The position numbers and the translations under genes were made by a program. 32,000 nt of DNA from Candidatus Baldrarchaeum yapensis (GTDB taxonomy: Archaea; Asgardarchaeota; Baldrarchaeia; Baldrarchaeales; Baldrarchaeaceae), in contig JAEOSH010000009.1 in assembly GCA_016840465.1 (NCBI GenBank), positions 20,695-52,694 on the forward strand, written 5' to 3'. Below the pieces are notes generated by a model. That model saw only the letters and a program-made list of their open reading frames with translations, was not told where the DNA came from and made no database searches. Positions 4,601 through 29,474 of this stretch are shown here, in pieces. The number at the start of each line of letters is the position of its first letter. Position 1 is the stretch's first letter.

Positions 4601-4889
4601 TTGGTCGGAATTTCTAGATTATCTGCAAATGTTTTTTGAGACGATTGTCCCATACCTGAACAAAATATACCTGTGGCTCGAGAAAAACGTGTTTCCGCAC
4701 CTCGTTTCAGTAGAACGGTTCTTTAGAGAAGTTCTGATTCCAGCACTTCCAAAAACGTATGAAGTTTACGTTGGAATTGCTGGTGCACTCGTAATATTGG
4801 GCCTAATTTTATATGTGAGATACCGTTCTAGAGAGAGGGTTGAGAGACTTGAGGCCGAGGCAGCAGAGTTTGAGGCGCTCGAGGAGTGA
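4581..4889 (+). CDS. Hypothetical small membrane protein (single C-proximal TM, charged tail)
   Basis: 102 aa, TM VYVGIAGALVILGLILYV followed by RYRSR; overlaps both neighbours. Confidence 0.65.
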   Translation: MGEVQGDWSEFLDYLQMFFETIVPYLNKIYLWLEKNVFPHLVSVERFFREVLIPALPKTYEVYVGIAGALVILGLILYVRYRSRERVERLEAEAAEFEALEE

Positions 4890-6339: not shown

Positions 6340-6362
6340 TTGCGTTTTTTTAAGGGGTAAAC

Positions 6363-7802
6363 ATGTACGGCAGCGTCACACCCGATATTATTGACGAATT
6401 GAAGTCCATAGTTGGCGAGAAGCACGTTTCAACAAGTCTTGTCGATAGACTAGTTTGCTCCCGCGATCTCTGGTTCCCCATGCTATTCAAAACTCTAAAG
6501 GGAGAACTATGGCCAACGGCTGACGTGGTTGTATGGCCGGGTTCGGCAGAGGAGGTCTCAGAAGTACTTAAATTGGCAAACAAAAGAAGAGTGCCGGTGG
6601 TAACACTTGGAGGAGGGGCCGGGGTGTGCGGCGGTTTATCGCCGATTCGTGGCGGAATAGTCATGGACATAAAGCGTATGTGCAAGGTTTTGGAACTTGA
6701 TGAGGAGTCGCTGACGGTTGTCGTGCAGGCAGGGCTCATAGGTATGGAGTTGGAGGAGTATCTAAATAGGAAAGGTTACACACTCGGTCACTATCCCCTG
6801 TCTATATACGCATCGACGATCGGAGGCTTTCTTGCGTGCCGGTCGGCTGGCGTTCTCTCCAATAAGTATGGCAAAATTGAGGATATGGTTATAGCATTGC
6901 GAGTGGTTCTTCCCACGGGGGAAATTATTGAAACGAAACGGGTTCCGAGGAGGGCAACAGGTCCCGATCTCATGCAGTTATTCGTCGGGTCGGAGGGAAT
7001 TCTGGGTGTTATAACGGAGGCCGCCCTCAGAATTCATCCATACCCGGAAAAGAGAATATTTACGTCCTATAGGTTCAAGGATCTACACGCAGGGCTGGAG
7101 GCCGTAAGAAACATATTTAGGAGGGGCGTGAGACCCGCCATTGTCAGGCTTTATGATGAGAGAGACACAAAAATAACGCTAGGAAGCCTAGGATTGCCAG
7201 CAGAGGGCTGCCTTTTAATTTTAAGTTTCGAGGGAACAGAGAAGCTTGTGGACGCCGAGGCTGAGGTTGCCGATGAGGTTTGCAGACAATGGGGTGGTGA
7301 ACAATTGGGCGATCTTCCAGCAAAGCATTGGTGGAAGCACAGGCATGATCAATACTGGAACCTGCCGCACCTGCTCAAAGGGTTTATGATCGTCGATACC
7401 ATAGAGGTGTCGGCGCCCTGGGATAGGCTTGAGAGGTTGTACTGGGAAGTTAAGCGGGCGCTTGAGGGGCAGGGCGTGATTCCGATGGCTCATTTCTCGC
7501 ACTTTTACCTCGATGGCGGCTCGATTTACTTCACATTTGTAAAGCCGAGAGAACCGAAAACGCCAATTAATGATGCTTATTGGAGGATTTGGAGTGCAGC
7601 GATGGAGGCGTGTATCAGGGTGGGCGGATCTATAAGCCATCACCATGGGGTGGGGCTCGTAAGGTCGCCATGGATGGAAAAGGAACATGGCAAGTCTTTT
7701 GAGATCATCAGGGCATTGAAGAAGGTTCTCGATCCAAATAATATTTTAAACCCCGGAAAATTGGGAATGGTGGGATGGAGTGAGGTTAGAAGAGTTTTCT
7801 AG
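6363..7802 (+). CDS. FAD-linked oxidoreductase of the PCMH/VAO fold, alkyl-dihydroxyacetone-phosphate synthase (AGPS)-like subfamily
   Basis: GHYPLSIYASTIGGFLACRSAG..SNKYGKIEDMV, GSEGILGVITEA, AHFSHFYLDGGSIYF, C-terminal SISHHHGVG (AGPS-type HHHG, not the GEHG of GlcD/D-LDH). Confidence 0.85.
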   Translation: MYGSVTPDIIDELKSIVGEKHVSTSLVDRLVCSRDLWFPMLFKTLKGELWPTADVVVWPGSAEEVSEVLKLANKRRVPVVTLGGGAGVCGGLSPIRGGIVMDIKRMCKVLELDEESLTVVVQAGLIGMELEEYLNRKGYTLGHYPLSIYASTIGGFLACRSAGVLSNKYGKIEDMVIALRVVLPTGEIIETKRVPRRATGPDLMQLFVGSEGILGVITEAALRIHPYPEKRIFTSYRFKDLHAGLEAVRNIFRRGVRPAIVRLYDERDTKITLGSLGLPAEGCLLILSFEGTEKLVDAEAEVADEVCRQWGGEQLGDLPAKHWWKHRHDQYWNLPHLLKGFMIVDTIEVSAPWDRLERLYWEVKRALEGQGVIPMAHFSHFYLDGGSIYFTFVKPREPKTPINDAYWRIWSAAMEACIRVGGSISHHHGVGLVRSPWMEKEHGKSFEIIRALKKVLDPNNILNPGKLGMVGWSEVRRVF

Positions 7803-8901
7803 CCGGATTTTGACCTGTTCATTATGCCTAAAAATGTGCAAGTACGTGTGTCCGGTTGCATCCGTAGTCAGGTACGAGCCTGTGTATCCGCCAAATAAGG
7901 CACTGATTGCGCACATGATCCTATCCGGTATGATAAACCTGAAGGACGAGGGTGAAAATGTTGCCAGGTACGCTTACCTTTGTACGACTTGTGGCCTCTG
8001 TAGCACGCCTCCATGGTGTGGTTTAGACGTGAGGCTCTGGGAGATCATTGAGGCTTTACGTGCGGACCTCGTTGATCAGGGCATAATCCTAGAACCCGTT
8101 AAGAGAGTTCTGAAAAGTGCTTCGGAGAACAGAAACCCGTACGGTGAGAATCTTCATGCAAGGTTTTCTAAAGTCAAACATGTGTTTTCGGACGATGCAG
8201 ATGTTGTTTACTTTGTCGGATGCACAACGTCGTACAGAGTTCCGCAGATAGCCAATGCCGTAATCGATGTTTTATCCATGGCGGGGCTCAACTTTACGCT
8301 CTTAAAGGACGAATGGTGTTGTGGCTCACCTCTTATTAGGCTTGGGCTCATTGATCTTGCCCGAGAGCATGCGGAACACAATATCAATGCATTAAACGAT
8401 ATTGGAGCAAAGACCGTCGTTTTCTCATGCCCCGGATGCTACAGGACATTTAAAATAGATTACGAGAGGTTAGGATATAAAATAAAGTTTGAAGTCAAGC
8501 ATGTTACTGAAGTTGTAGTTGATCTGCTTAAGAGTTTGAAGATACGCAAAAAAGAGGATATTACTGCAACATATCACGATCCCTGCCATTTAGGGCGTCA
8601 TTTGGGAATATTTGATGCTCCTCGACAGATACTCTCGGTGCTCGGAATACAGATAAGGGAAATGCAATGGAGAAGAGAGAACTCTAGGTGTTGTGGGGCC
8701 GGCGGTGGGATGCTAATTACAAATAGCGAGGTTGCATATGCTGCCGGGAGAAGAAGAGTTGAAGAGGCTTTAGAAAGTGGGGTCAAAAATCTCATAACAG
8801 CATGTCCGTTCTGCAGGATCTCGCTCGAAAGGGCAAGTGGCGGAAAAATAGAGGTTAAAGACGTCATGGAATTGTTAGCGGAATCTTTAGAAGAACGTTA
8901 A
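7780..8901 (+). CDS. Fe-S oxidoreductase, HdrD/GlpC/GlcF-like (ferredoxin motifs plus two CCG domains)
   Basis: CSLCLKMCKYVCP, CTTCGLC, YFVGC, WCCGSP, SCPGC, YHDPCH, CCGAGG, TACPFC; overlaps the upstream gene. Confidence 0.88.
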   Translation: MRLEEFSSRILTCSLCLKMCKYVCPVASVVRYEPVYPPNKALIAHMILSGMINLKDEGENVARYAYLCTTCGLCSTPPWCGLDVRLWEIIEALRADLVDQGIILEPVKRVLKSASENRNPYGENLHARFSKVKHVFSDDADVVYFVGCTTSYRVPQIANAVIDVLSMAGLNFTLLKDEWCCGSPLIRLGLIDLAREHAEHNINALNDIGAKTVVFSCPGCYRTFKIDYERLGYKIKFEVKHVTEVVVDLLKSLKIRKKEDITATYHDPCHLGRHLGIFDAPRQILSVLGIQIREMQWRRENSRCCGAGGGMLITNSEVAYAAGRRRVEEALESGVKNLITACPFCRISLERASGGKIEVKDVMELLAESLEER

Positions 8902-11586: not shown

Positions 11587-12117
11587 TTATTTTTCTCGGG
11601 AATGGAACACTATGTGAGGGGCTTCCGGTAAAAGGATTTCTTGAAGTGCCAGAGAGACCGCATCAGGAGACCCAGGAATACATGCCACAAGGGCTCCCCT
11701 TATTATCCCCGCGTCGGCACGAGACGCTACGGCTGCTGTTCCTATCTTGTTAAACGAGAGCAACCTGAATATTTGACCGAACCCCGGAAGACGCTTCTCA
11801 AATAGAGGTTCTATGGACTCTATTGTAACGTCCTTAGGACTGACGCCCGTACCGCCAATGAACACTATCACATCGGCTCCTCCTTCCAGGGCTTTGAACA
11901 GCGCACTTCTTATTTTAGAAGTCTCGTTTGGAACGAGATCGCGCAGAACCACCTTGTGACCCTTCTCTCTCACCAGTCTTTCAGCTAAATCTCCAGATTG
12001 GTCTTCTACCGGTTGACCTTTGATCATTTTGTCATACCGTGATCCGGATACTGTGATTATCGCAAAAGAGAGGCGTTTGGGGGCAGCACTCTTATGTCTC
12101 TCACTTACGACTGACAT
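11587..12117 (-). CDS. moaB: MoaB/MogA-family molybdopterin adenylyltransferase
   Basis: AIITVS, DQSG, GGTGVSPKDVTIE, PGFGQIFR, IPGSPDAV. Confidence 0.9.
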   Translation of the reverse strand: MSVVSERHKSAAPKRLSFAIITVSGSRYDKMIKGQPVEDQSGDLAERLVREKGHKVVLRDLVPNETSKIRSALFKALEGGADVIVFIGGTGVSPKDVTIESIEPLFEKRLPGFGQIFRLLSFNKIGTAAVASRADAGIIRGALVACIPGSPDAVSLALQEILLPEAPHIVFHSREK

Positions 12118-14833: not shown

Positions 14834-15439
14834 CTACGAGGATCGTGAGGACCTCTTTTCTCTGATGAAGCTTTCAAGGACATCTTTCGACTCTTTAAAT
14901 CCCCTAGTTATCAGGACATCACCAGGTTCTATTTTGAGGTTTGCTTGCGGGTTTATGAACCATTTATTGCCACGTCTTATTGCAATTATCGAAATTCCAG
15001 CTTTTTCATCGAATTCGGCGTCCTCCACGGTGACTCCCGCAAATGGCGACCTTTCGTCAACCTCTATCTTCATTATTGTCTCCTCAGTTTCTTCTATAGC
15101 ATATCTTAGTACGGGATGTGCCTTAACTCCTCCGATTACGAGTTCTGCCATCCTCGATGCTGCGTCAGCGATGTTTTCGGCCGCAACTCCGAGCCTCAGC
15201 AGCCCCAGCACCTCCTCTTCTTCCACTTCCTCGCTCTTCTTCTGTAGTATCTCGAGCACCTTCAATTCAAATTTCGTGTAAAGTTCATCCATGTGTTCCT
15301 CGAGTTTTAGAACCTCCTCGGCAATCCCCGGATCTTGGAATATAAGCGCCGAATACGCGAGATCTACCATTATCTCAGACGTGTTTTTCATTTCCAGAAT
15401 CATCTGCTCAACTTCTTTCCAGTGTCTTTCTCGGTCCAT
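14834..15439 (-). CDS. PhoU-like plus TrkA-C (RCK_C) domain protein (archaeal COG3273-type)
   Basis: EMKNTSEIMVDLAYSAL, AAENIADAA, IIAIRRG..W..NP, GDVLITRG. Confidence 0.85.
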   Translation of the reverse strand: MDRERHWKEVEQMILEMKNTSEIMVDLAYSALIFQDPGIAEEVLKLEEHMDELYTKFELKVLEILQKKSEEVEEEEVLGLLRLGVAAENIADAASRMAELVIGGVKAHPVLRYAIEETEETIMKIEVDERSPFAGVTVEDAEFDEKAGISIIAIRRGNKWFINPQANLKIEPGDVLITRGFKESKDVLESFIREKRSSRSS

Positions 15440-16050
15440 TTCATCACCTCCGGGAGGGAGGGAACAACCCCACAGGCTATTCTTTCAAGTTCCTCCACGC
15501 CTTCAGGCGTCCCCCTCGCTATTATTACATCGTTTTCCCGTATCTCAAAGTCTTTATCGGGATCCAATATCCACTCCCTTCCTCTCCTAATTGCTATGAC
15601 ATCTGCACCGACCCTTGCCTCCAATAGAAGATCCCCGAGTTTCTTACCCACAAGCACACTATCTTTGCTAACCTTTATCCTAGCAACCTTCTTTTCGGCA
15701 CGAAGGAACGCTGAAACTATGGCCCTATGTGGAACAACTCCTAGAAAGACTAGGTTTGCAATATCAGCCGCTGCGTTTGATATCTCGTCTGCGGAGATTG
15801 CAGTTTTCATAATTGCGAGCATCTGCTCCGCATCTTCCCTATCTCTGACGGCGAGGGCGGAAGTCATCAATAATAGGTTACATAACTCATCAACCTTTTC
15901 TTCCAGCCGCATAACCTCTTTTGCGAGGTCTTTATTGTTGTAGAGGAAAGCAGAATACGCGAGATCTATCATGAGACCTGAGAGATCCTTCATTTCCTTT
16001 AATAGTTCGAGCACCGGAATTGCTTTGTACGTTATGCGCTTATTGCCCAA
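15400..16050 (-). CDS. PhoU-like plus TrkA-C (RCK_C) domain protein, paralogue 2
   Basis: EMKDLSGLMIDLAYSA, ADEISNAAADIA, DVIAIRRGREW..DP, NDVIIARG. TTG start after GGAGGA; own TATA-like CTTTAAAA at about 16104-16111 on the minus strand. Confidence 0.85.
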   Translation of the reverse strand: MGNKRITYKAIPVLELLKEMKDLSGLMIDLAYSAFLYNNKDLAKEVMRLEEKVDELCNLLLMTSALAVRDREDAEQMLAIMKTAISADEISNAAADIANLVFLGVVPHRAIVSAFLRAEKKVARIKVSKDSVLVGKKLGDLLLEARVGADVIAIRRGREWILDPDKDFEIRENDVIIARGTPEGVEELERIACGVVPSLPEVMKWTEKDTGKKLSR

Positions 16051-16129: not shown

Positions 16130-16585
16130 TTATTCGCGAGACTTGGTGGACTCTTTTAATTGTCCATGTTTCTTCAATTTGGCGGGATTTGGGCCCAAAG
16201 ACCTTATCCTCTCGACAAACTCTCTAATTATCGATGCAAATTCGGCACCCATCGCGGCGGAAACAAACACCATCTCCAGCCTCTCCGGCTCTATTCCTAT
16301 ACTTTCAAGGATTCTCTTTGCAAAAATCACTCTCAGTTCTGCCTTCAGATTCCCATCAACGTAGTGGCATTGCCCCTTTAGGCATCCAGCCACCAGAACT
16401 CCGTCTGCTCCTTCCGCGAACGCCTTAAATATATGGATTAAATCCACTCTCCCCGTGCACGGCACCCTTATTATTCTAATATTCGTCGGGTACTGGATCC
16501 TGCTTGTACCCGCTAAGTCCGCCGCGGCGTAACTACAATGCCAACAGCAGAACGCAACTATTATCGGATCAAAATGCTGATCCAT
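16130..16585 (-). CDS. mvhD: MvhD/FlpD [2Fe-2S] adaptor subunit
   Basis: AFCCWHCSYAAADLAG, RVPCTGRVD, GADGVLVAGC..GQCHY..GN, IEPERLEM. Confidence 0.95.
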   Translation of the reverse strand: MDQHFDPIIVAFCCWHCSYAAADLAGTSRIQYPTNIRIIRVPCTGRVDLIHIFKAFAEGADGVLVAGCLKGQCHYVDGNLKAELRVIFAKRILESIGIEPERLEMVFVSAAMGAEFASIIREFVERIRSLGPNPAKLKKHGQLKESTKSRE

Positions 16586-16586
16586 G

Positions 16587-18539
16587 TCACACCCCCAAGA
16601 TCCCCTCTATCTGCGCGAGTATTTGCTCATCCTTGTAGTGTTTTAGTTGTATTGCCCCAGTGGGGCAAGCAGCGGCGCACGTTCCACAACCCTTGCATTT
16701 CAGTTCGATAACCCTTACGGATTTCCCTTCTGGGGGAAGTTCTAGTGCATTAAATGGGCAAAACCGCACGCATATTCCACATTTCCTGCAAAGATCTTCA
16801 TTTACCTCTGGAATTATAAGGTCAATTGTTATCTCTCCTCTCGAAAGGAGGGATGCGGCTCTTGCCGCGGCGGCACTTCCTTGAGCCACCGAGTCCGGTA
16901 TGTCCTTCGGTCCCTGCGCACATCCACAGATGAATATTCCTGGTATTTTCGTGTCGATAGGCTGGAGTTTAGGGTGCAATTCTTTTAGGAAACCGTCTGG
17001 CCCCACTTCTACTCCCAGAATCTTTGCTAAGTCCTGTGTACCCCTAGATGGAATCATCGCGGAAGATAGCACTACAAGATCCGCGTCTATGACCATGACT
17101 TCATCTAACACGACATTATATACGTACACTTTCAACTTTCCACTTTTTTTGTCCTCTTCTACCTTTGACACACGACCCTTTATTATTTTTACTCCTAATT
17201 CCCTTGCCCTGTCCGCGTACTCTTCATATCCCTTTCTATACGCTCTTATGTCGATACAGCAGATGTATACTTCCGCTTGAGGGTCGTGCTCAAGTTTTAT
17301 CAGTTGAGCGTGCTTTAGGGCAACCATGCAACACACACTACTACAGTACTTATTGAATCTGTGATCTCGTGAGCCCACACACTGTATCATCACAATCGTC
17401 TTAGCGGGTTTTCCGTCTGCTCTTAAGATCTCACCGTGTGTGGGGCCTAAGGGATCAAGCATCCTAGCAAGTTGCATCTGCGTAACCACGTTATCATATT
17501 CTCCATATCCATACTCAGTTATAGGAGACGGGTCGAACTCCTCGAAACCCGTTGCAACGATTATCGCCCCTACCTTCAGTTCTAATTCTTTCGGTTTTTC
17601 GTCGAAGTTTATTGCATTCCTCTCACAAACCTGTGCGCACATTCCACATCTTATGCATTTATCCGTATCAATCAGATACACACGGGGAATTGCCTGTGGA
17701 AACGGTATGTATATTGCTTTTCGCATACGCATCCCGAGATCAAACTCGTCGGGCACGAGAACTGGGCAAACCTCCTCGCATGCACCACATGCAACGCACT
17801 TTTCTTCATCAATGTGTCTTGGCCTCTTCAATATTCGTACTGTAAAATTGCCAACATGCCCATCAACTGAAATTACTTCTGAGCACGTAAAGAGAGTTAT
17901 ATTGGGGTGAGATGCCACTTCACTCATCTTTGGGGAAAGAATGCACATAGCACAGTCATCGGTCGGAAAAGTCTTCACCACACGAGCCATGTTTCCGCCT
18001 ATCGATGGGGATCTCTCCACCAGGTAAACCCGAAAGCCCTGCTCTGCGAGATCCAATGCCGCCTGTATTCCCGCAACTCCTCCACCTATTACCAGTACGG
18101 ATTTTATTACCGGTATTTTGACACTCTTTACCGGTTCTAGCCTTTTAGCACGTTCGACCGCCGCTTTGAGCAAGGCTTTTGCCTTTTCAGTTGCCTTTCC
18201 CGGTTCATATAGATGCGGCCATGAACAGTGTTCTCTGAGATTCACCATCTCCAACAAATACGGATTAAGACCGGCTTCGGAGATGCATTTTCTGAATGTC
18301 GGCTCGTGAAGTTTGGGAGAGCAGGAGGCTACAACCACTCTGTTAAGTCTATGCTCTTTTATCGCGTCCTTGATCAACCTCTGCCCCGTTTGACTACACA
18401 TGAACATGTAATCTTTAGCGACGACCACTCCCGGTAGTTTTTCCGCAAATCTTCTTACCTCTTCAACGTTTATAACGCCAGCAATGTTTTTTCCGCAATG
18501 ACAGATGAAAACTCCCACCTTTGCATTATCGGGACTCAC
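16587..18539 (-). CDS. hdrA: Heterodisulfide reductase subunit A, full-length canonical architecture
   Basis: N-terminal FICHCG..MCS..SCSP..REHC; Rossmann GGGVAG; KTFPTDDCAMCILSP; inserted 2x[4Fe-4S]; QCVGSRD..YCSSVCC..K; GCAQGPKDI; C-terminal 2x[4Fe-4S]. Confidence 0.95.
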   Translation of the reverse strand: MSPDNAKVGVFICHCGKNIAGVINVEEVRRFAEKLPGVVVAKDYMFMCSQTGQRLIKDAIKEHRLNRVVVASCSPKLHEPTFRKCISEAGLNPYLLEMVNLREHCSWPHLYEPGKATEKAKALLKAAVERAKRLEPVKSVKIPVIKSVLVIGGGVAGIQAALDLAEQGFRVYLVERSPSIGGNMARVVKTFPTDDCAMCILSPKMSEVASHPNITLFTCSEVISVDGHVGNFTVRILKRPRHIDEEKCVACGACEEVCPVLVPDEFDLGMRMRKAIYIPFPQAIPRVYLIDTDKCIRCGMCAQVCERNAINFDEKPKELELKVGAIIVATGFEEFDPSPITEYGYGEYDNVVTQMQLARMLDPLGPTHGEILRADGKPAKTIVMIQCVGSRDHRFNKYCSSVCCMVALKHAQLIKLEHDPQAEVYICCIDIRAYRKGYEEYADRARELGVKIIKGRVSKVEEDKKSGKLKVYVYNVVLDEVMVIDADLVVLSSAMIPSRGTQDLAKILGVEVGPDGFLKELHPKLQPIDTKIPGIFICGCAQGPKDIPDSVAQGSAAAARAASLLSRGEITIDLIIPEVNEDLCRKCGICVRFCPFNALELPPEGKSVRVIELKCKGCGTCAAACPTGAIQLKHYKDEQILAQIEGILGV

Positions 18540-19008
18540 TTCTCATCTCCTCAAATATCGCTTTTAAGTTGAAGATCGGGAGAATTCTTATTGCGCCCTC
18601 AGTACATGCCTCGACACATTTCTTGCAAGCAGTACAGAAGACTCTCTTGTACCTGATGGTTCCGAACCCGGGTATCCCGTCGGGAACTATTATTGCCCGT
18701 TCAGGCATTCTCTTTGCGAGTTTCCTTATGAGTTCTACGAGTATTCTTCGATTTTCCGATCGTATTTCATCGATGTTGAGATGAGGGTCAAGAAAAATGG
18801 ACAAGTCTAAGACATTTTCAAGTGAAAGAGCATCGTCTTCGCACACGTTTATACATTTCCCACATGCAATACATGCGGCAGGATTGTAATGTACTTCTCC
18901 AAAACCTTCTAGTCCTTCGGGTACCTCTATTGGGCCCTCAGGCTCCTTTATCGCGAGTTCTCTCAATAAATTTAGTAAAAGGACGCGTTTTGTTAAGGGC
19001 TTTGACAT
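18526..19008 (-). CDS. 2x[4Fe-4S] protein built from two ~80-aa repeats
   Basis: CIACGKCINVC and CTACKKCVEAC, each preceded by a helix-P..PI.VP.G..GFG unit. Confidence 0.8.
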   Translation of the reverse strand: MSKPLTKRVLLLNLLRELAIKEPEGPIEVPEGLEGFGEVHYNPAACIACGKCINVCEDDALSLENVLDLSIFLDPHLNIDEIRSENRRILVELIRKLAKRMPERAIIVPDGIPGFGTIRYKRVFCTACKKCVEACTEGAIRILPIFNLKAIFEEMRSESR

Positions 19009-19026
19009 AAAAACACTCTTAACCCC

Positions 19027-21327
19027 TTATCCTTTTTTAACAGCATCCACTATTGCTCTTATTGAGTTTAGCAACTTATCGGTTTCCACTGATACCACGT
19101 CGACGTATCCGAGTTTATCGGGGTCGTATCCGAGTTCTTTTAAAACCTCCTTTGCGAATGCTACCATTCGCCTTGCCCTGACGCTACCATCTAAGTAGTG
19201 GCAACTCTTTTCGCCACACGCTATTACAAGGACCGCATCAGCGCCTTCTGCAAGCGCTTTCAATATGTCTAACAGTGATACACGTCCAGCGCACGGGAGC
19301 ATAATCGGGTACACGTATGATGGGTACTCCTTTCCCGTGATGCCTAAAAGGTCAAGTGTCGCGTATGCACATTCTTCGCAACAGAACGCGATCACTTTAG
19401 GAGACTCGTTATCGAGAGACTTTGCAGTTCTCAGCACCGCTTCTATCTGCTTGAACAGCAGTCCCCGTTCATAATCTCTTAGTTGCAGTGCACCCGTTGG
19501 GCAAAGAGCCGCGCAAATTCCGCATCCGTTGCACTTCGTAACATCTATCACCGGCTTGCCATTAACGAGTTTAGGTGCGCCGAACGGGCAAACCTCCTCG
19601 CATGCACCACATTGGCTACATAATTCCTCTCGAACAGCTGGTGTATATGTCTCCTTCGGGATTCCATTCCTCAGGAACTTGAGGGCTCGTTCGGCGGCGG
19701 CTGATGCATGGACTATAGCATCTGATACGAACATTGGCGTATATGCGGTTCCACATAGGAATATTCCACGTTCCCTCGTGTCCGTCGGTCTCACTTTCGC
19801 GTAAAGCGACTGGAGGAATTCATTGAGTTTTCTCGGCATTTTAAGGCCTTTAAGGAAGCCTGCGGCGTTTGGCTTCAGTGTTGGGGTCAGTACGACGAGA
19901 TCTGTTTCTATTGCCATTATTTGTCCCGTTATTGTGTTTTCCAAATATGCCACCGGCTTCTTCGTCTCCGGATCCAGATCTACCGTTGCGAGATCCCCTC
20001 TAATGAATATTACACCCATTTCGCGGGCTTTCTGGTATAGGTTTTCCGCGAAAAACGGAGATCTTATGTCCATGTACGATATTATCACATCGATGCCGCG
20101 CTCGCGGAGTTTTATTGCGTGCTTGAGAGCATAGGTACAGCAGATCCTCGAGCAGTAGGGATTGTCCTCGACCGTTCGGCTACCCGTGCATAACGCCATT
20201 AGAACCCTCTTTACCTCCTCACCTGTATCTGGGCGAATAACCTTACCTCCTGTCGGACCTTCTGGATCAAGCATTCTTTCTAATTGGAACTGCGTCACCA
20301 TGCTCTTTATCTTTCCGTAGTTGTAACCAGCGTATTTTGAGGGGTCTGCCTCTCTCATACCCGTCGCAATCAGTATTGCTCCCACGTTTACGGTAATCTC
20401 CTTTTCTTCACCGTCCAGGGAAATTGCATTTTGCTTACATGCTTCGACGCATTTACCACATTTTGTACACGCGGAGAAGTCAATTGCGTAGCCTTCGGGG
20501 TATGGCACCTTGGATGGAAGGTATATTGCCTTTCTCTTTGAGAGACCGAGGTTTAGGTCGTCGGGGACCTCCACCGGGCAAACCTTCGCGCACTCCCCGC
20601 AGAGCGTGCACTTCTCCGGATCAACCCCCCTCGGGCGCACCTTTATTGTAACCTTGAAGTCCCCGGGTTGTCCCTCGATCTTTTCAACTTCTGCACACGT
20701 GATCACATGCACAGTAGTTTCCTTAAGTTCCTGGTACAATTGTTTTAGAAGATCTTGTGGTGGTTTGAACGACGGAAAGAGATCCACGTGATTAGACACT
20801 ATTCCTCCCAAAGTTGGGCTTTTCTCGACCAAGAAAACTTCCACACCGGCGTTGCTGAGATCAACTGCTGCCCTTATTCCGGCAACCCCTCCGCCTATCA
20901 CTAATGCTGCGTTTTTCGGGGTTATAACTCTCGTTTCCGGCCCTTTAGTTTCCGAGATTCTTGCAAGTGCAGCCGCTAATAGAACCTTGGCTTTCCTAGT
21001 TGCGCCATCTCCATCACTTTTATGAGGCCATGCGCAGTGCTCACGTATGTTAACGAACTCTATCGGTACACTCAATCCGGCGCTTCCGAGCTTTTCTCTT
21101 ATCACGTCTCCGTAAATTTGCGGAGAACACGCGAGCACCACTAACGCATCCACTTTACCTTTAAGTTCCTCTGCAGCCTTTTTTGCATCCTCATTACAGA
21201 GTTTGTCGACCAGTACGACCGATACCACACCGTTTTGTTCCTCAGCGAACTTTTTCACCTCATCAAACTTTATAACCCCTCCAAGCGTCCCCCCACATGT
21301 GCATAAGATCACTCCGACATTCTTCAT
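19027..21327 (-). CDS. hdrA: HdrA-MvhD fusion protein (QmoB-like architecture)
   Basis: CTCGG..LC..ACSP..REHC, GGGVAG, inserted ferredoxin, LCTGSR..YCSRICC, C-terminal ferredoxin, then MvhD domain AFCCEEC..PCAGRV..C..CHY. Lacks the TFPTxDCxxC motif. ATG 21327 sits 6 nt after GAGGTG. Confidence 0.9.
20522..20619. repeat. 98-bp near-identical segment, copy 1 (in hdrA-mvhD)
   Basis: 97/98 identical to 22188-22285; the single mismatch is 20582 vs 22248. Confidence 0.95.
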
Positions 21328-21337
21328 GCACAACACC

Positions 21338-22633
21338 TCACTTCAGGGAGTTTAATATCCTTATTGTGGCCGCATATGCGTCATTCATGAGGTCTGGTAT
21401 GCTCTTGGGGCCAGTGGCACATCCCACCGCAAATATTCCGTCAACCATCGTTTCCACGCCGTTTATCTCCTTTGTTTTTATAAAGCCATATTCGTCCGTC
21501 TCTATTCCGAGGATCTTTGAAATCTCCTCTGTGCCCTTGGAAGGTACGATTGCGGGAGTTATCACAAGGAGGTCGGCTTCGATTGTCTGGAGTGTCGACG
21601 TGTACGTGTCCTCAACGTATACCAGCAGTTTGTCCTTTTGCTTCTCAACGGCACCGACTCTTCCTCTTATGAATCTGACACCCTCGGCCCTCGCTCTTCT
21701 GTAGTAGTCCTCGTACTCTCCGAACGTTCTTATGTCCATGAAGCAGACTATGACCTCGATGCCCTTTTCTCTGAGCATCAAGGCGTGTTTGAGCGCGTAG
21801 GTGCAACATATCTTGGAACAGTAAGGCTTCAGCCTCTGGTCCCGAGATCCGCTGCATAACGTCATCACAACTCTTTTTGCCAGTTCCCCACTTTCTAGAT
21901 TCTTAACCTCACCGCCTGTGGGTCCATTCGGATCCAAGAGCCTAGCAAGTTGTAATTGGGTAATTACATTCTTGTACATGCCGTATCCGTACTCCTTGAG
22001 CAGTGTTGGGTCGAGTTCCTCGAATCCCGTCGCCACGACAATCGCATCGACCTCCAGCTCCATGGATTCACTCTTCCCATCGAGGCTTATTGCATCGAAT
22101 TTGCAGACCTCAACGCACTTGCCGCATTTATTGCAGTTTTCGAAGTCGACAACATAAGTTAACGGCATTGCTTGAGGATGCGGGAGATATATTGCCTTTC
22201 TCTTTGAGAGACCGAGGTTTAGGTCGTCGGGGACCTCCACCGGGCAAGCCTTCGCGCACTCCCCGCAGAGCGTGCACTTCTCCGGGTCCACACCCATGGG
22301 ATGCCGTTCAAGCTTTACTTTGAATCCACCGTTTTTTCTTTCTACGCTCTTTACAACAGTGCGAGTTAGGATCTTGATGTTCGGGTGGTCTTTGATGTTG
22401 AGGCGATAATAACATTTCCTAAAGCCTCTCGTTCCCTTTAGCAATTCGGACCGTGAAATGCAAAGCCCGCAGTCATCCGTGGGAAAGACCTTGCCGACCC
22501 TAAGTATATTCCCCCCGAGTGTTGCCTCCTTTTCGGCGATAAATACCTTAATTCCAAAATCCGCAAGTTCTATTGCGGTTTGGATTCCGGCTACTCCGCC
22601 CCCTATTATCAAAACAGACCTTTCATTCGCCAT
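21338..22633 (-). CDS. hdrA: Short HdrA (FAD domain plus inserted ferredoxin only; QmoA-like architecture)
   Basis: Starts directly at [10 protein letters not shown]; [10 protein letters not shown]; 2x[4Fe-4S]; LCSGSRD..YCSKICC; GCATGPKSI. No N-terminal cluster domain and no C-terminal ferredoxin. Confidence 0.88.
22188..22285. repeat. 98-bp near-identical segment, copy 2 (in short hdrA)
   Basis: 97/98 identical to 20522-20619; flanks diverge immediately. Confidence 0.95.
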
Positions 22634-22643
22634 TTGTACCTAC

Positions 22644-23525
22644 CTACCTTATCTTTTTGAGAACGCGATCCACTTTAACCCTATGCATCCCGAGGCCCAG
22701 TTCCCGCGGGCTAAGGCCAATTGCGTACCCGAGGAGTTCGGAGAAGTAAAACACCGGGATGTCGAAACGTTCCTTAGTGAGCCTTCTTATCTCAAACTGT
22801 CCCATGTCGTACTGTATAAAGCAGAAGGGACACGCAACCACCATGCAGTCCGCGCCGGCTTCCTTCACTCTAACGAGTTTTTCTCGGGCCATCCTTATGG
22901 AGTATTCGGACATCACATTTCTAAGGCCTGCGCCACAGCATAGTGTTTTCATCTCATATTGTTGAGGGGTTGCACCGAGGGCTTCGACGAGTTCGTCCAA
23001 TTTTCTCGGGTTTTCGGGGTCATCGAATTTCAGTATTTCGCTGGGACGGAGAATGTGGCAACCGTAATGTGCGGCTACTTTCAGCCCCTCCAGTGGCCTC
23101 TTCACCATCTCTCTTATCTTCTGGAGGCCAATATCATGATAAAACACCTCGAGGAGGTGCTTAACCTTCGCCTTTCCCTTGAATTCCCTATTTGCCTTAG
23201 CTAAAATTTCGTTGATTTTTTCTCTCATCTCCGCGTCCTCTGTGAGGGTCACGTATGCGGTCTTTAGGGTTTCGTAGCATCCGTTGCAAAGAGTAAGTAT
23301 ATCAAGCCCCATTTCATCTGCAACTGCGAGATTCCGCGCTGCTATTGCAAGCCACGTCAAGTAGTCCATGTTTCTTATGCCTATGGGATCAGGACAACAC
23401 GTTGCTTCACGCATATCGACAAGTTCCACTCCAAACTCAGCTAGGACGTTTCGAGTTGCGTATTCCAGGTTAGGTAGACGAAGGGGTATCATACAGCCGA
23501 GAAACAGGGCGTATTTCATATTCAT
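22644..23525 (-). CDS. hdrB: Heterodisulfide reductase subunit B (copy 2)
   Basis: LFLGC, TCCPDP, LCNGC, HYGCH, LCCGAG, ACPFC (two CCG domains). Confidence 0.95.
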   Translation of the reverse strand: MNMKYALFLGCMIPLRLPNLEYATRNVLAEFGVELVDMREATCCPDPIGIRNMDYLTWLAIAARNLAVADEMGLDILTLCNGCYETLKTAYVTLTEDAEMREKINEILAKANREFKGKAKVKHLLEVFYHDIGLQKIREMVKRPLEGLKVAAHYGCHILRPSEILKFDDPENPRKLDELVEALGATPQQYEMKTLCCGAGLRNVMSEYSIRMAREKLVRVKEAGADCMVVACPFCFIQYDMGQFEIRRLTKERFDIPVFYFSELLGYAIGLSPRELGLGMHRVKVDRVLKKIR

Positions 23526-24031
23526 CCCCTCACAAGCTTTAGAAATCCTGTGGCTTCGAATATTTTCATTATCTCCTCGGTGTTTGGCTTGGGGAGTTCT
23601 GGCAGTTTCATTTCTTGTCGTCTCTTCAGGATGGCTGCCGCCGCTGGAATTGTAAACCCAGTTTCGACGAATTGTGACGCTATTGCCTTGACACCTTCAG
23701 GAACGTTGTTCTTCCTGGTTGCGAAGTTTCTAATTATTGAGAGGACCTCGGAGACCTTTACCCCTTGTGGGCATCTCTCGATACAGGTGTGACAAGCAAC
23801 ACATAGCCATATATCCGGGGATGAGAGAAGATCTTCCGTCAAGCCGAGTAATGCGGACTCTATTAGGAGCCGCGGGTTATAACGTCCCGTTATCTTCGTA
23901 CTGGGACAACATCCGGTACATGTACCACATTGGAAGCAGTAATTTATTGTTCTTGCCTCATGGAAGTGTTCTTCGAGTTTTTTCCTAAATTCAAGGTCAA
24001 ACTCCGTCTTGGGGAGTCTTCGTCCGAGCAT
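23522..24031 (-). CDS. hdrC: Heterodisulfide reductase subunit C (copy 2)
   Basis: CFQCGTCTGCCP, WLCVACHTCIERCPQGV. Confidence 0.93.
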   Translation of the reverse strand: MLGRRLPKTEFDLEFRKKLEEHFHEARTINYCFQCGTCTGCCPSTKITGRYNPRLLIESALLGLTEDLLSSPDIWLCVACHTCIERCPQGVKVSEVLSIIRNFATRKNNVPEGVKAIASQFVETGFTIPAAAAILKRRQEMKLPELPKPNTEEIMKIFEATGFLKLVRG

Positions 24032-24044
24032 TCTTTCACCTTCC

Positions 24045-24893
24045 TCAGCCTTGGGTTAATAGCAGGGACTTCACCCTGTTCCAGAGCGGGGTATTAACAT
24101 CAGGACAGGATACGCTCTCTCTAGATATTCTTATTGCGCCGGGTGAGGGACACACCCTCACACATACACCGCACAACACACAAAACTGATTGAGGATACG
24201 TGGTCTTTTTGCATCAAGAGTCCTTAAAGTCTTTCTGACAACCGCCCTCCTGACCTTATTCTCCTCAACCTCGGGGTGGAATATTGCGTGCGCCGGGCAA
24301 GCAATAGCACAGAGGTGGCATCCCTCTCTGCACAATTCGGGCGAGATTTCAACCCGACCGTTGAAAACCTTCTCTACTTTTATAGCCCCCCTTCCGCACA
24401 CCTCAGCGCACCAGCCGCACGCTATGCACAAGTCTCGGTTTATAATAATACTTCCATCGGAATCCTTCAGTATCGCGTTCCGCGAGCAAACTTTTGCGCA
24501 CGCACCACAGCCGTTACATTTCTCCTCGTCTATTATGGCATACTTTCTCATGGGAGGAATAATGCCGTTCTTTATAAGCAGAGGCGTGGCTTCGGGTGTG
24601 CACCCCGGTTTCCCATGTTCGAAGCTTATCGCACCGAATTGACACACAACAGAGCATAGCCCACAAAAGGAGCATTTTTCGTGATCTAATGAGAATTTCA
24701 CCTTAATACTGCCATCTCTAACCTCTACCTCTACAGATATGGCGTTTTTTGGACATGTGGTTGCACAAATACCGCATCCAGTACATAAACTCGAATTGTG
24801 CGATAGTTTCACGTAGTAGGTGTAAGAGCGCAGTACAACGGTGAACCTACCGTCTTCATGCTCGGTAACAATTCTGGACCACAGCGGCATCAC
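24045..24893 (-). CDS. Polyferredoxin with six [4Fe-4S] motifs, FwdF-like
   Basis: CTGCGICATTC, CSFCGLCSVVC, CNGCGACAKVC, CIACGWCAEVC, CREGCHLCAIAC, CVLCGVCVRVC. The AIKVEKVFNG and terminal AIRISRE segments recall FwdF. Confidence 0.8.
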   Translation of the reverse strand: MMPLWSRIVTEHEDGRFTVVLRSYTYYVKLSHNSSLCTGCGICATTCPKNAISVEVEVRDGSIKVKFSLDHEKCSFCGLCSVVCQFGAISFEHGKPGCTPEATPLLIKNGIIPPMRKYAIIDEEKCNGCGACAKVCSRNAILKDSDGSIIINRDLCIACGWCAEVCGRGAIKVEKVFNGRVEISPELCREGCHLCAIACPAHAIFHPEVEENKVRRAVVRKTLRTLDAKRPRILNQFCVLCGVCVRVCPSPGAIRISRESVSCPDVNTPLWNRVKSLLLTQG

Positions 24894-25777
24894 CCATCCC
24901 TCGATATCTTGCTCAAGAGCGGTGATACGTCAGACGCATGGGTGTTCAGTCCCAGCTCCTCGGGGGGTATTCCGAATGCGAGTCCTATCAACTCCGTTAG
25001 GTAAAGGACAGGTATTGAGATATTCTCCTTAAGGTCCCGCTTTGCCGCCTGTTGTCCCATATCGAATTGTATGAAGCAGAATGGACATGCTGTCACTATA
25101 CAATCTGCGCCCTCTTCTGCTATGCTTCTCAACTTCTCGACCATCATTTTCATGCTGAGTTCTTGGTCTATTCCGCTCAGCGTTCCTCCGCAACATTCGT
25201 ACTTGCCCGTATATTCTATTGGCTTTGCACCCAAGGCCTCAACAATTTTATCCAGAAGTTTGGGCTTTTGGGGGTTATCTGACGTCCTGAGTGCCCTGCC
25301 GGGACGGAAGAGGTGGCAGCCTGGGAACGTTGCTACACTGATATCTTTTAAGTCTGCAGACACTTTCTTCTTCAACTCGCCGACGCCTATGTCTTTGGCT
25401 AGTAGAATGGCTATGTGTTTCACATTGACATTCGTGCTAAGCTTCCTTCCCGCGGAATTCAGGATATCTTCGACCTTTTTCCTTGTGTTGACATTTTGCT
25501 CAAGTTCGATTTTTGCCCTAAGCAACGTTTCGAAACACCCGCTACATAATGTTAATATGTCGAGGCCCTTCTCTGCTGCAACGGATAGGTTTCTTGCCGA
25601 TATTGCGAGAGCACCGTAAAAATCGAGAGAGTATAGAGGTGCTGGACCGCAACATGAGAACTCCTTAAGGGTCACGAGCTCGATTCCAAGTGCCTCTAGA
25701 ACCTTACGAGCGGAAATTTCGTAGCTTATTGACCGGACCGGGATCGTGCATCCGAGAAAGAAGGCATACTTTCTCAT
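24890..25777 (-). CDS. hdrB: Heterodisulfide reductase subunit B (copy 1)
   Basis: FFLGC, SCCGP, LCSGC, FPGCH (HYGCH variant), ECCGG, ACPFC. Confidence 0.92.
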   Translation of the reverse strand: MRKYAFFLGCTIPVRSISYEISARKVLEALGIELVTLKEFSCCGPAPLYSLDFYGALAISARNLSVAAEKGLDILTLCSGCFETLLRAKIELEQNVNTRKKVEDILNSAGRKLSTNVNVKHIAILLAKDIGVGELKKKVSADLKDISVATFPGCHLFRPGRALRTSDNPQKPKLLDKIVEALGAKPIEYTGKYECCGGTLSGIDQELSMKMMVEKLRSIAEEGADCIVTACPFCFIQFDMGQQAAKRDLKENISIPVLYLTELIGLAFGIPPEELGLNTHASDVSPLLSKISRDG

Positions 25778-25779
25778 TC

Positions 25780-26235
25780 TTATCCCTCTCTTATGAACAC
25801 AGATAGTCCGGATGTGTTAATGATGGATTTTATCTCCTTTATTGTCTCCTGGGATGGTGATGGGTCCGGCAACCCGTATTCTTCTCTCTCCATGAGCGCA
25901 AACTCATCGAGTTCGAGCGCGGTTCCGTGCTTTGATATATTTGCCAGAAGCATCTTATATGCGGCGGGGAGGTTTCCATGTTTTGCTATGTAATTACGCA
26001 GTCTTGTGAGGATATCCGGAAACTCCACCGCCTTGGGGCAACGCTCACTGCATATGTAGCAGTATGAGCATAGCCACACCGAGGGCTCATTTATCAGGCG
26101 GTTAACATCTACCACTGCCGTGTGGATTATCCTCATGGGTCTAAACCTTTTATCCAACCTGCTGACAAGGCAACCGCCGACACATGTTCCACATGCAACG
26201 CATATTTGAATCTTCTCGGCTATTTCTGATAGCAT
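25780..26235 (-). CDS. hdrC: Heterodisulfide reductase subunit C (copy 1)
   Basis: CVACGTCVGGC, WLCSYCYICSERCPKAV. Confidence 0.9.
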   Translation of the reverse strand: MLSEIAEKIQICVACGTCVGGCLVSRLDKRFRPMRIIHTAVVDVNRLINEPSVWLCSYCYICSERCPKAVEFPDILTRLRNYIAKHGNLPAAYKMLLANISKHGTALELDEFALMEREEYGLPDPSPSQETIKEIKSIINTSGLSVFIREG

Positions 26236-26572
26236 CGAGTTACACCATTGAGTTGTGGCTATCAGATTTCTGAAACTTCTGTTTCTTAAATTCTTTTCAT
26301 GCCACTAATTATGCTCTCTTCGGCATATATGCTAATATCTGCCACCCGGATTCTTCAAATTCAATGATTTAATGTAATCATCGAAAAAATCTTAATAGTC
26401 CACCATTTTTTTGATGCTCAAGTGTCGTTGCACTTTTAAGGCGATTTTTGTCTACAGGTATTTCTTATAAGAAACCTCGACAAAATATAAAGTTCAAACC
26501 CCTTGCTTTATTGAACTCTAACGTAATTCTTTGCCTTGTGGATCTGTTACGGAAAAGCAAGCTTAAATACAC

Positions 26573-28946: not shown

Positions 28947-29474
28947 TTACGCCCGCGGACTCTTCAACATTTCTCTTGTTAATCTCTGAAATACCTCATG
29001 CACATTCTCTCCAGTTTTTGCCGAAGATTCTATGAATGCGTTGAACTTCAACTTCTCGGCGAGCGACTTCCCCATGTCGGTCGTTACCTTCCGCTCGTCC
29101 TTTAAATCTATCTTGTTTCCGACTAAAATACACGGTATGTTTCCGCAATGCTCCCGCACGTCCCCGCACCATTTTTCAACATTTTCGAAGGATCGCGGAT
29201 TTGTTATATCGTACATCACAATCGCGCCAGCTGCCCCCGTGTAGTAGTATCTTCGAATTCTTTCGAAGACTTGGTGGCCCGCTATATCCCATATTGCGAG
29301 TTTGACACGTAGTCCCTTAATCGTTATTACCTTTATTGCGATGTCCGACCCCAAAGACGGCTTATAGCTTACTGGGAATCGGTTCTCGGTATAGCGCATT
29401 ATTATGCTTGTCTTTCCGACCCTCTCATCGCCCACAACTATTACCTTAAATACGTACTCCTTCTCCTCACTCAC
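28947..29474 (-). CDS. Rab-like small GTPase (Ras superfamily, eukaryotic signature protein)
   Basis: FKVIVVGDERVGKTS (G1), PSLGSD (G2), KLAIWDIAGH (G3), YYTGA, VMYDIT, LVGNKID (G4), ESSAKTGENV (G5); no C-terminal Cys. Confidence 0.93.
   Translation of the reverse strand: MSEEKEYVFKVIVVGDERVGKTSIIMRYTENRFPVSYKPSLGSDIAIKVITIKGLRVKLAIWDIAGHQVFERIRRYYYTGAAGAIVMYDITNPRSFENVEKWCGDVREHCGNIPCILVGNKIDLKDERKVTTDMGKSLAEKLKFNAFIESSAKTGENVHEVFQRLTREMLKSPRA

Follow-up and report, generated by a model that had tools for sequence, protein, structure and literature searches.

What do the Hdr enzymes of Asgard archaea reduce, and what feeds them? The question is acknowledged to be open, these organisms having many Hdr genes but no methane metabolism (PMC11291895), and it is raised in compact form by a 32,000-nt stretch of DNA (hereafter "the window") from Candidatus Baldrarchaeum yapensis (GCA_016840465.1, contig JAEOSH010000009.1, positions 20,695–52,694), carried by a 2.27 Mb, 96%-complete metagenome-assembled genome in which its contig is numbered C52. 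An open reading frame (ORF) scan of the window reveals ten ORFs, all on the minus strand between positions 16130 and 26235, and Pfam and NCBIfam profile matches identify them, in the order of transcription, as HdrC, HdrB, a polyferredoxin, a second HdrC, a second HdrB, a short HdrA (HdrAs), an HdrA::MvhD fusion (HdrAD), a ferredoxin (Fd160), a full-length HdrA (HdrAf) and MvhD. The nine junctions measure, in this order, 2, −4, 13, −4, 10, 1, 18, −14 and 1 nt. The gene identities, their order and their common strand, as given in an initial annotation made from the DNA sequence, are thus borne out, and the overlaps or gaps of 18 bp or less that it mentioned are exact (−14 to +18 nt). The reading to which we give slightly better than even chances is that the block encodes two Hdr units linked by an adaptor, the 160-amino-acid (aa) protein Fd160. 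The novelty of the block lies not in its components, which are of known kinds, but in their fixed combination, in the putative adaptor with its Rosetta-stone fusions and in an apparently locally converted HdrAD.

The block is not a chance pile-up of genes; it is a conserved functional unit, since the same order is kept at 34–69% identity in other lineages and since some of its genes are found fused. Fd160, which has no paralogue in the genome, was used as an anchor in a search of 400 Asgard species genomes, and the gene context was obtained from 18 regions of up to 20 kb each, fetched around its matches; a profile search of 1.84 billion representative proteins was then followed by contig look-up. 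The identical ten genes in identical order are found in a genome of another family (locus L036, contig C56 of genome G298), and the ten-gene order recurs in a third lineage (L058–L060, from JGI contigs and NCBI GCA_054383415.1), the proteins of these blocks being 34–69% identical to those of the window. Each protein of L058 has as its best match in the window genome its positional counterpart and not a paralogue, and trees recover orthologue groups of the first HdrB (HdrB1), HdrAs, HdrAD and HdrAf. In the HdrA tree the three HdrA groups are each compatible with a single origin, HdrAf being supported at 100/100, and the window HdrAf clades with its L036 and L058 orthologues at 100/97, with 62–65% identity.

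The ten-gene order is also rare, as it is found in 2 of the 400 sampled Asgard genomes and in one further lineage, and the polyferredoxin specific to the block has the same distribution at E ≤ 1e-25, six candidates having been scored per genome (2/400, the window genome and G298; also L058). Within the window organism's own taxonomic order, the four sampled genomes yielded no convincing Fd160 (three no match, one a weak match at E 6e-4). Thor- and Lokiarchaeota are known to possess multiple and fused HdrA genes (PMC11237513), hdrA-mvhD pairing and an HdrA selenocysteine have been reported in Asgard archaea (PMC11227280), and a highly expressed Asgard HdrABC has been described with an "unidentified heterodisulfide" as its substrate (PMC11291895). 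Neither the ten-gene order nor Fd160 and its fusions are described in the searchable literature, outside which lie most subscription papers, including the review by Appel et al. 2021. The initial annotation had accepted as its own refutation a gene order widespread with a known partner, and this has come half true: the order does exist elsewhere, but it is rare, no paper describing it was found and no known partner is attached to it. On the other hand, the functional coupling of the ten genes that it had proposed gains support from the order kept in two other lineages and from the gene fusions, and the single hetero-oligomeric hub that it had envisaged is plausible as judged from these sequences.

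How many bifurcating sites could such a block provide? The answer depends on the three HdrA types. HdrAf (16587–18539, minus strand; 650 aa; NF040770, 892 bits) has the full methanogen domain set, i.e., the N-terminal domain, the Cys197 motif, the inserted ferredoxin domain as well as the C-terminal ferredoxin domain. HdrAD (19027–21336, minus strand; 769 aa) consists of an N-terminal cluster domain, a TrxR domain without the Cys197 motif, a C-terminal ferredoxin domain and MvhD (FlpD at residues 648–768); alignment with 9sfi_A places FPSFKPP where methanogens have FPTDDC(A/S)M(C/U). HdrAs (21338–22633, minus strand; 431 aa) matches only positions 133–553 of the HdrA models: it starts at the FAD fold and retains the inserted ferredoxin domain in addition to the FAD/TrxR domain and the FPTDDC (Cys197-type) motif, but has no N-terminal domain, no C-terminal ferredoxin domain and no MvhD. 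A further insertion containing a conserved Cys (RKCYYR) is common to its orthologues. The GGGVAG motif and the four Cys of the TrxR cluster (CxGSRD...YCSxxCC) are present in all three window proteins, which score 413–892 bits against the HdrA models.

Complementary loss in tandem HdrA paralogues is the published criterion by which heterodimers have been predicted in anaerobic methanotrophic archaea (ANME) (Chadwick et al. 2022, PMC9012536). Of the two elements of a predicted Cys197-completed dimer, HdrAf possesses both, HdrAD only the N-terminal domain and HdrAs only the Cys197 motif, and this complementary loss in adjacent hdrA genes is kept in 11 orthologous pairs. Indeed, all 11 aligned HdrAD orthologues are without the Cys197 motif and without the inserted ferredoxin domain, both of which all the HdrAs orthologues keep. 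Methanogen complexes are at present modelled with each protomer's arm serving its partner's flavin (PMC12350162), and on that basis the HdrAs/HdrAD pair would amount to one complete bifurcating site. In a family of 86 genomes (f31), which are probably Thorarchaeia, the HdrAD copies have lost the cluster cysteines of the TrxR domain, as would be expected of a scaffold half whose sole part is to lend the partner's flavin its mobile arm. The "three different HdrAs" of the initial annotation are therefore distinct, but they are not three equivalent inputs, the defects of HdrAs and HdrAD being complementary and following the one-site heterodimer logic of PMC9012536. A Bathyarchaeia locus (L065) also contains a short/long HdrA pair, together with MvhD, HdrCB and an MvhG-like gene and without Fd160; this pair falls inside the canonical HdrAf-type clade, and the Asgard pair therefore represents the same idea in a lineage of its own.

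As a separate observation on full-length HdrA, relatives in a further family (f15; L038:4834–6705, minus strand; L037:7939–8865, plus strand) contain a second full-length HdrA with an in-frame TGA (FPTDDCAI*IL) at the second Cys of FPTDDCxxC, the position read X in the solved chain 9sfi_A and probably a selenocysteine; the window HdrAf has a Cys there.

The window HdrAD carries a peculiarity of its own. A 98-nt near-exact repeat (97/98 identical) occurs at 20522–20619 within hdrAD and at 22188–22285 within hdrAs and forms the core of a tract covering the inserted ferredoxin domain, which among the HdrAD proteins compared is present only in that of the window genome (0 of 11 orthologues). Within this domain HdrAs and HdrAD are 68–82% identical at the amino acid level, against 25–57% elsewhere, and the tract is best read, from this pattern of similarity, as the product of a gene conversion from hdrAs into hdrAD through which the latter would have regained the inserted domain. 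Logan contigs from three metagenome runs, each of them a possible source sample and not necessarily independent of the others, span the whole stretch with zero sequence conflict; in all three runs they break exactly at the 98-nt repeat and only there. The 1628-nt piece between the two repeat copies has about 80% of the flanking depth in each run, a drop that could reflect a deletion or fusion allele in part of the population. An assembly error was considered as the origin of the extra HdrAD ferredoxin domain and was rejected, as the copies are not the same (83% identity over 157 nt) and identical pieces are present in the three runs.

How might the two units be wired to each other or to a donor? 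The protein on which this question turns is the product of fd160 (18526–19008, minus strand; 160 aa, two [4Fe-4S] clusters). Listed initially as a ferredoxin, it is probably no loose electron carrier and belongs to a rare family repeatedly fused to MvhD or to donor modules. The family comprises about 36 clusters at E < 1e-20 among the 1.84 billion representative proteins, and a word-index search with Fd160 retrieved a single homologue. Its members are characterized by a length of about 160 aa, two CxxCxxCxxxC motifs, conserved (V)PExLxGFG boxes and 20 invariant columns (two alignments), and the two halves of Fd160 match each other in BLAST, which indicates an internal duplication. The predicted structure is confident (predicted local distance difference test, pLDDT, of 90); when the model was compared with the PDB by Foldseek, nothing matched at E ≤ 0.001, and the structures returned, among them FwdF and NuoI, were of a generic two-cluster ferredoxin-like kind. 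So far the family has been encountered mostly in Asgard-labelled or Asgard-like loci, and in 18 of the 18 loci examined the HdrAs–HdrAD pair adjoins Fd160 or lies within about 1.5 kb of it.

The fusions are the strongest evidence concerning the role of Fd160. In the f31 family the gene order is hdrC-hdrB-hdrAs-hdrAD-[fd160::mvhD]-hdrAf-hdrC-hdrB, in which the bracketed gene encodes a colinear Fd160::MvhD fusion of 304–322 aa; the window Fd160 and the free MvhD of the window (mvhD, 16130–16585, minus strand; 151 aa, a [2Fe-2S] adaptor; FlpD E 4e-53; five Cys invariant in the MvhD alignment) align to it end to end and without overlap. The fusion is present in 22 of the 30 best loci, with hdrAf downstream in all 22 and hdrAD directly upstream in 21, and it constitutes the only MvhD available in f31 to the adjacent HdrAf, which is itself without MvhD. 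The reverse order, MvhD::Fd160, is found in the metagenomic protein P0011, whose MvhD half is 58% identical to the free MvhD of the window and whose Fd160 half is 37% identical to the window Fd160, and in P0038 Fd160 forms the C-terminus of a GltD-like, NADPH-type module. Finally, some proteins of about 745 aa end in Fd160 and are always encoded directly after hdrAs-hdrAD (L050:7931–10168, L051:10066–12354, L052:9733–11976 and L066:11740–13932); for their N-terminal 600 aa, which may be a donor or docking module, no Pfam match and nothing usable in an Atlas search was obtained.

Since two independent orders of fusion with MvhD and a fusion with a donor-type module are known, Fd160 is probably an MvhD-side adaptor and not a free ferredoxin, to judge from its fusion partners. 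Consequently, of the two MvhD sockets that the initial annotation had reserved for donors encoded elsewhere, both MvhD domains exist, but at least one is probably filled inside the operon. Prediction of a complex of Fd160 with the free MvhD and residues 560–769 of HdrAD gave about the same score as a control in which chain 2 had been replaced, and the AlphaFold2 model of the f31 Fd160::MvhD, based on a shallow alignment, has a pLDDT of 40, at which the packing of the two domains is not readable.

Some HdrAf orthologues of the f31 family (L045:10711–14115 and L049:5970–9386; 1134–1138 aa) contain an inserted GltD/NfnB-like module (Fer4_20 + Pyr_redox_2); this is the architecture called "type III HdrA" in PMC12054007, here occurring within an Fd160::MvhD cluster.

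The remaining genes of the block encode the disulfide-reducing side and a further iron–sulfur protein. The first pair consists of hdrC1 (25780–26235, minus strand; 151 aa; CxxCxxCxxxC motifs at residues 12 and 56; TIGR03290 E 1.5e-27), with positional orthologues in L036 and L058, and hdrB1 (24890–25777, minus strand; 295 aa; two Pfam CCG domains), which aligns end to end with HdrB of the methanogen structure 5ODC (5odc_B, 230 bits) and in the HdrB tree clades with the first-position HdrB of L036 and L058 (support 95/98). The second pair is made of hdrC2 (23522–24031, minus strand; 169 aa; TIGR03290 E 2.9e-37) and hdrB2 (22644–23525, minus strand; 293 aa; TIGR03288, 359.7 bits vs the 345-bit cut-off). 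All ten cysteines of the two CCG motifs are present in both HdrB proteins, and the HdrC proteins have the two [4Fe-4S] motifs expected for an HdrABC–MvhD complex. Between the two pairs lies the gene of the FwdF/MvhB-like polyferredoxin (24045–24893, minus strand; 282 aa; best NCBIfam match FwdF, NF042909, E 2.5e-41), with 26 Cys and five canonical [4Fe-4S] motifs plus one variant, about six in all; it is a probable low-potential wire or outlet. Upstream of hdrC1 an AT-rich spacer of 327 nt (26236–26562, minus strand) appears to be the only gap long enough to hold a promoter.

Put together, these data can be accommodated in the following scheme, in which we infer where Fd160 docks, that the two units are physically joined, what the donor is and which way the electrons flow. 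The ten genes would form one conserved operon for two flavin-based electron-bifurcating Hdr units and their private iron–sulfur wiring. Unit 1 would be canonical: HdrAf, which can form a symmetric dimer because it carries both the N-terminal cluster domain and the Cys197-type motif, would carry the free MvhD on its mobile arm and deliver the high-potential electron to one HdrBC pair. Unit 2 would be an asymmetric HdrAs/HdrAD heterodimer associated with the second HdrBC pair and endowed with essentially one complete bifurcating site, to which HdrAD, having no Cys197 motif, would contribute the N-terminal domain, the C-terminal ferredoxin domain and the MvhD arm, and HdrAs, having no arm, the Cys197 motif, the flavin site served by the HdrAD arm and the exit through the inserted ferredoxin domain. 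Fd160 would plug onto the outer, donor-facing side of MvhD, i.e., the site occupied in the methanogen complexes by MvhG, FdhB or ElpB, and the free Fd160 of the window would most likely serve as a link between the HdrAf-bound MvhD and either the HdrAs/HdrAD unit or an external donor, if not both. The six-cluster polyferredoxin might take low-potential electrons from an inserted ferredoxin domain, an outlet role suggested by analogy with Elp-Hdr, in which MvhB docks at the inserted ferredoxin domain of HdrA (PMC12350162). The external mid-potential donor/acceptor would probably be F420H2/F420, acting through an orphan FrhB-like protein encoded elsewhere, and the disulfide substrates of the two HdrB need not be CoM-S-S-CoB.

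Several considerations weigh against this scheme. The contacts among the Hdr units, MvhD and Fd160 are predictions from sequence, and it is the spacing of the genes that suggests a single transcript for all ten. Unlike its orthologues, the window HdrAD possesses the inserted ferredoxin domain and keeps the TrxR-cluster cysteines, so that for the window pair the picture of a single active site may fail. Furthermore, the HdrB tree does not settle which HdrBC pair serves which HdrA, the window pairs not being assignable to the upstream or to the downstream pair of f31. In another family (f28), hdrAs-hdrAD-fd160 occurs without a free mvhD or hdrAf nearby, and therefore Fd160 does not always need unit 1. 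Last, as regards the F420H2 donor, the FrhB orthologue of G298 lies between the genes of TFIIB and RNase HII, the same genes that in L058 flank the block plus its FrhB gene, so that the adjacency of mvhD and frhB in the latter locus may stem from an insertion accident and not from a functional link.

Alternatively, the block might consist of two or three independent Hdr modules which share a promoter for the sake of co-regulation and never touch, each having its own donor elsewhere and Fd160 and the polyferredoxin being diffusible or module-private carriers; we consider this unlikely, albeit a serious contender. It is in keeping with the genome as a whole, whose seven HdrA-type, six HdrB, five HdrC and six MvhD genes are scattered over five contigs, mostly in separate specialized operons, and with the different combinations seen across Asgard lineages: besides f28, f15 has hdrAs-hdrAD-fd160 together with a fused hdrAf::mvhD, families f16 and f17 have a longer Fd160-containing protein, and the polyferredoxin is limited to the ten-gene form. 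Nevertheless, co-regulation alone is hard to square with the fusion of Fd160 to a free-type MvhD in both orders, with the fact that, of the 22 f31 fusion loci, 21 have the fused gene flanked by hdrAD and hdrAf, and with an order held in three lineages at only 34–69% identity, and all these facts count against independent modules.

In a further reading, the two units, wired input to input through MvhD–Fd160(–MvhD), would make up one particle that does without a donor. One flavin would then run in confurcation (thiol couple A with reduced ferredoxin) and supply the other, at which bifurcation would take place (disulfide couple B with ferredoxin or polyferredoxin). We give this variant little credit; if true, Asgard archaea would possess a tandem two-stage electron-bifurcation machine that swaps reducing power between ferredoxin and two different thiol/disulfide pools and depends neither on H2 or formate nor on F420 or NAD(P)H.

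It is improbable, in our judgement, that Fd160 and the free MvhD together constitute a detached mobile arm for the armless HdrAs, which would give HdrAs/HdrAD two served flavin sites and leave HdrAf as a separate enzyme. HdrAs plus Fd160::MvhD does reproduce the list of HdrAD parts (TrxR domain, C-terminal two-cluster ferredoxin domain, MvhD), and the window HdrAD, with its TrxR-cluster Cys and its inserted ferredoxin exit, has a flavin site that could work if served. However, in f31 the fusion is the only MvhD that the adjacent HdrAf has, and the f31 HdrAD, having lost the TrxR-cluster cysteines, has a site that cannot feed HdrBC; moreover, the window mvhD begins 1 nt after hdrAf, as in canonical hdrA-mvhD pairs (PMC11227280). 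Hardly tenable, finally, is the idea that hdrAs and the HdrA::MvhD gene are a QmoA/QmoB equivalent serving dissimilatory sulfur metabolism, or that the block is a methanogen-type H2:CoM-S-S-CoB reductase: the layout does resemble QmoA/QmoB, the QmoC model is matched over its N-terminal third by the HdrC proteins, and methanogen HdrABC structures are the best solved relatives of all subunits, but the cluster is without a membrane subunit, the genome has nothing that passes the QmoC cut-off (its top candidate, hdrC2, scores 78 vs 300 bits and covers only positions 2–120 of the 360-position model), and the 96%-complete genome yields no McrA, no MvhAG-type hydrogenase (its only soluble [NiFe] enzyme being a group-3b HydBGDA) and no FdhA.

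If the preferred scheme of two adaptor-linked units is adopted, what could then be the donor? As stated in the initial annotation, none is encoded nearby, there being no hydrogenase, Fdh or Flx subunit among the other scanned ORFs of the window, and the window offers none of the enzymes that sit on MvhD in HdrABC–MvhD complexes (MvhAG, FdhAB, ElpAB or FlxABC). The genome search that it had recommended for mvhAG, fdh, fwd and mcr yielded no Mvh-type (group-3c) hydrogenase (PF00374 search), no FdhA and no McrA; as to fwd, the sole molybdopterin enzyme found is a 448-aa FwdB-like protein. The PF00374 search returned four matches at three [NiFe] large-subunit loci, one of which is the soluble group-3b HydBGDA set, accompanied by a protease, on contig C96; the other two are group-4/Nuo-like, one of them adjoining HdrB. 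This last locus (C1:2163–5369, L004) places a NuoD-like group-4 [NiFe] large subunit directly beside an HdrB-type CCG protein. The methane or alkane metabolism that would supply a CoM-S-S-CoB substrate is likewise not indicated, given the missing McrA, and these genome searches, together with the paralogue counts mentioned above, portray a non-methanogenic organism rich in Hdr paralogues, in agreement with the initial annotation. Its attribution to an Asgard archaeon is equally upheld, the closest HdrAs homologues being labelled Helarchaeota or Promethearchaeota and a Ras-family small GTPase (28947–29474, minus strand; Pfam Ras E 2e-54), which fits an Asgard origin, being encoded in the window beside a TrmB-type regulator.

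A clue to the donor is provided by L058, in which an FrhB/FdhB-like gene (389 aa) begins 2 nt after mvhD, and metV-metF lies divergently upstream. An orphan FrhB-like gene whose product is 43.6% identical to the L058 copy and has an N-terminal 2×[4Fe-4S] domain is present in the window genome (C19:14069–15187), which also has cofE and cofD and, on contig C1, metVF beside a luciferase-family (Mer-like) gene. The FrhB-like gene stands next to mvhD in L058 only and is an orphan in both the window genome and G298. F420H2-driven Hdr activity via an FdhB homologue and MvhD is experimentally established in Methanothermobacter (PMC12350162), and by analogy F420H2, acting through the orphan FrhB-like protein, is a candidate external donor of the Asgard block, yet only a lead, because the L058 adjacency could be the insertion accident discussed above.

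The surroundings of the block contain further genes. On the 3′ side of mvhD, after an 80-nt spacer with a TATA-like box, two tandem PhoU+TrkA_C genes follow on the same strand (14834–16050, minus strand); this pair is not kept beside the block in L036 or L058. A separate operon on the plus strand (4840–8901) encodes an FGGY-family kinase, a FAD-linked oxidase (FAD_binding_4 + FAD-oxidase_C) and an HdrD-like Fer4_8+CCG protein, the latter being a further CCG-type enzyme 7 kb from the Hdr block. Genes of molybdopterin/tungsten cofactor type are also found, namely a MoeA fragment at the window edge and a 661-aa MoeA fused to a PBP-like domain (3–2664, plus strand), and a MoCF_biosynth protein (11587–12117, minus strand).

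As far as the initial question is concerned, the locus offers a compact, conserved and testable unit, with ten genes, two distinct HdrB active sites and a putative adaptor whose fusions point to its docking place. Should Fd160 prove to be a general plug for the donors of Asgard Hdr (MvhD, NADPH modules, perhaps FrhB), this would explain how one core can be reused with many partners and pull-downs, whether from the small number of cultured Asgard strains or from heterologous expression, would gain a handle.

How, then, does the block compare with the systems already known? With respect to the MvhAGD–HdrABC complex of hydrogenotrophic methanogens (5ODC, 8RVU), HdrAf, MvhD and both HdrB/HdrC pairs are full-length homologues, HdrAD matches 5odc_A at E 8e-129 and the cluster-binding cysteines and the FAD motif are all kept. 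On the other hand, the window genome is without MvhA/MvhG and MCR, so that neither an H2 donor nor a CoM-S-S-CoB substrate is implied, and the Asgard operon goes further, with two additional HdrA types, another HdrBC pair, Fd160 and the polyferredoxin. In ElpABC–HdrABC and FdhAB–MvhD–HdrABC(–Fmd) (PMC12350162; 7BKB) the donor acts via MvhD, F420H2 is oxidized by an FdhB/FrhB-type subunit and the electrons of the inserted ferredoxin domain of HdrA pass to a polyferredoxin, MvhB or FmdF; the FrhB-like gene following mvhD in L058 and, in the window genome, the orphan orthologue and the F420 biosynthesis genes recall these complexes, whereas the window genome is without an ElpA/FdhA scaffold, its FrhB-like gene lies outside the window and Fd160 has no counterpart there.

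The tandem or fused HdrA proteins of ANME (HdrA5/6 and 12/13; PMC9012536) obey the same complementary heterodimer logic as HdrAs/HdrAD, and it has been suggested that multi-HdrA clusters of methane-metabolizing archaea, whose HdrA proteins have been sorted into classes, might sustain two bifurcation events (Lyu, Yu and Lu 2025, PMC12054007). HdrAs and HdrAD of the Asgard archaea, however, form groups that stand apart from the canonical HdrA clade, and neither Fd160 nor the ten-gene order is reported for the published multi-HdrA clusters (PMC9012536, PMC12054007), in which Asgard Hdr clusters are not treated (the word "Asgard" being absent from PMC12054007). Like the block, QmoABC of sulfate reducers combines a short HdrA-like flavoprotein with a long HdrA-like protein ending in an MvhD domain, but where Qmo has the membrane subunit QmoC the Asgard block has complete HdrB and HdrC subunits. 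Two different HdrBC pairs within one operon are also a feature of the sHdr system (HdrC1B1A-Hyp-HdrC2B2) of sulfur oxidizers; sHdrA, however, is a minimal flavoprotein, the sHdrA-type structure 6tjr matching HdrAD at E 1.5e-25 compared with 1e-131 for methanogen HdrA, whereas the Asgard block has three MvhD-linked HdrA types.

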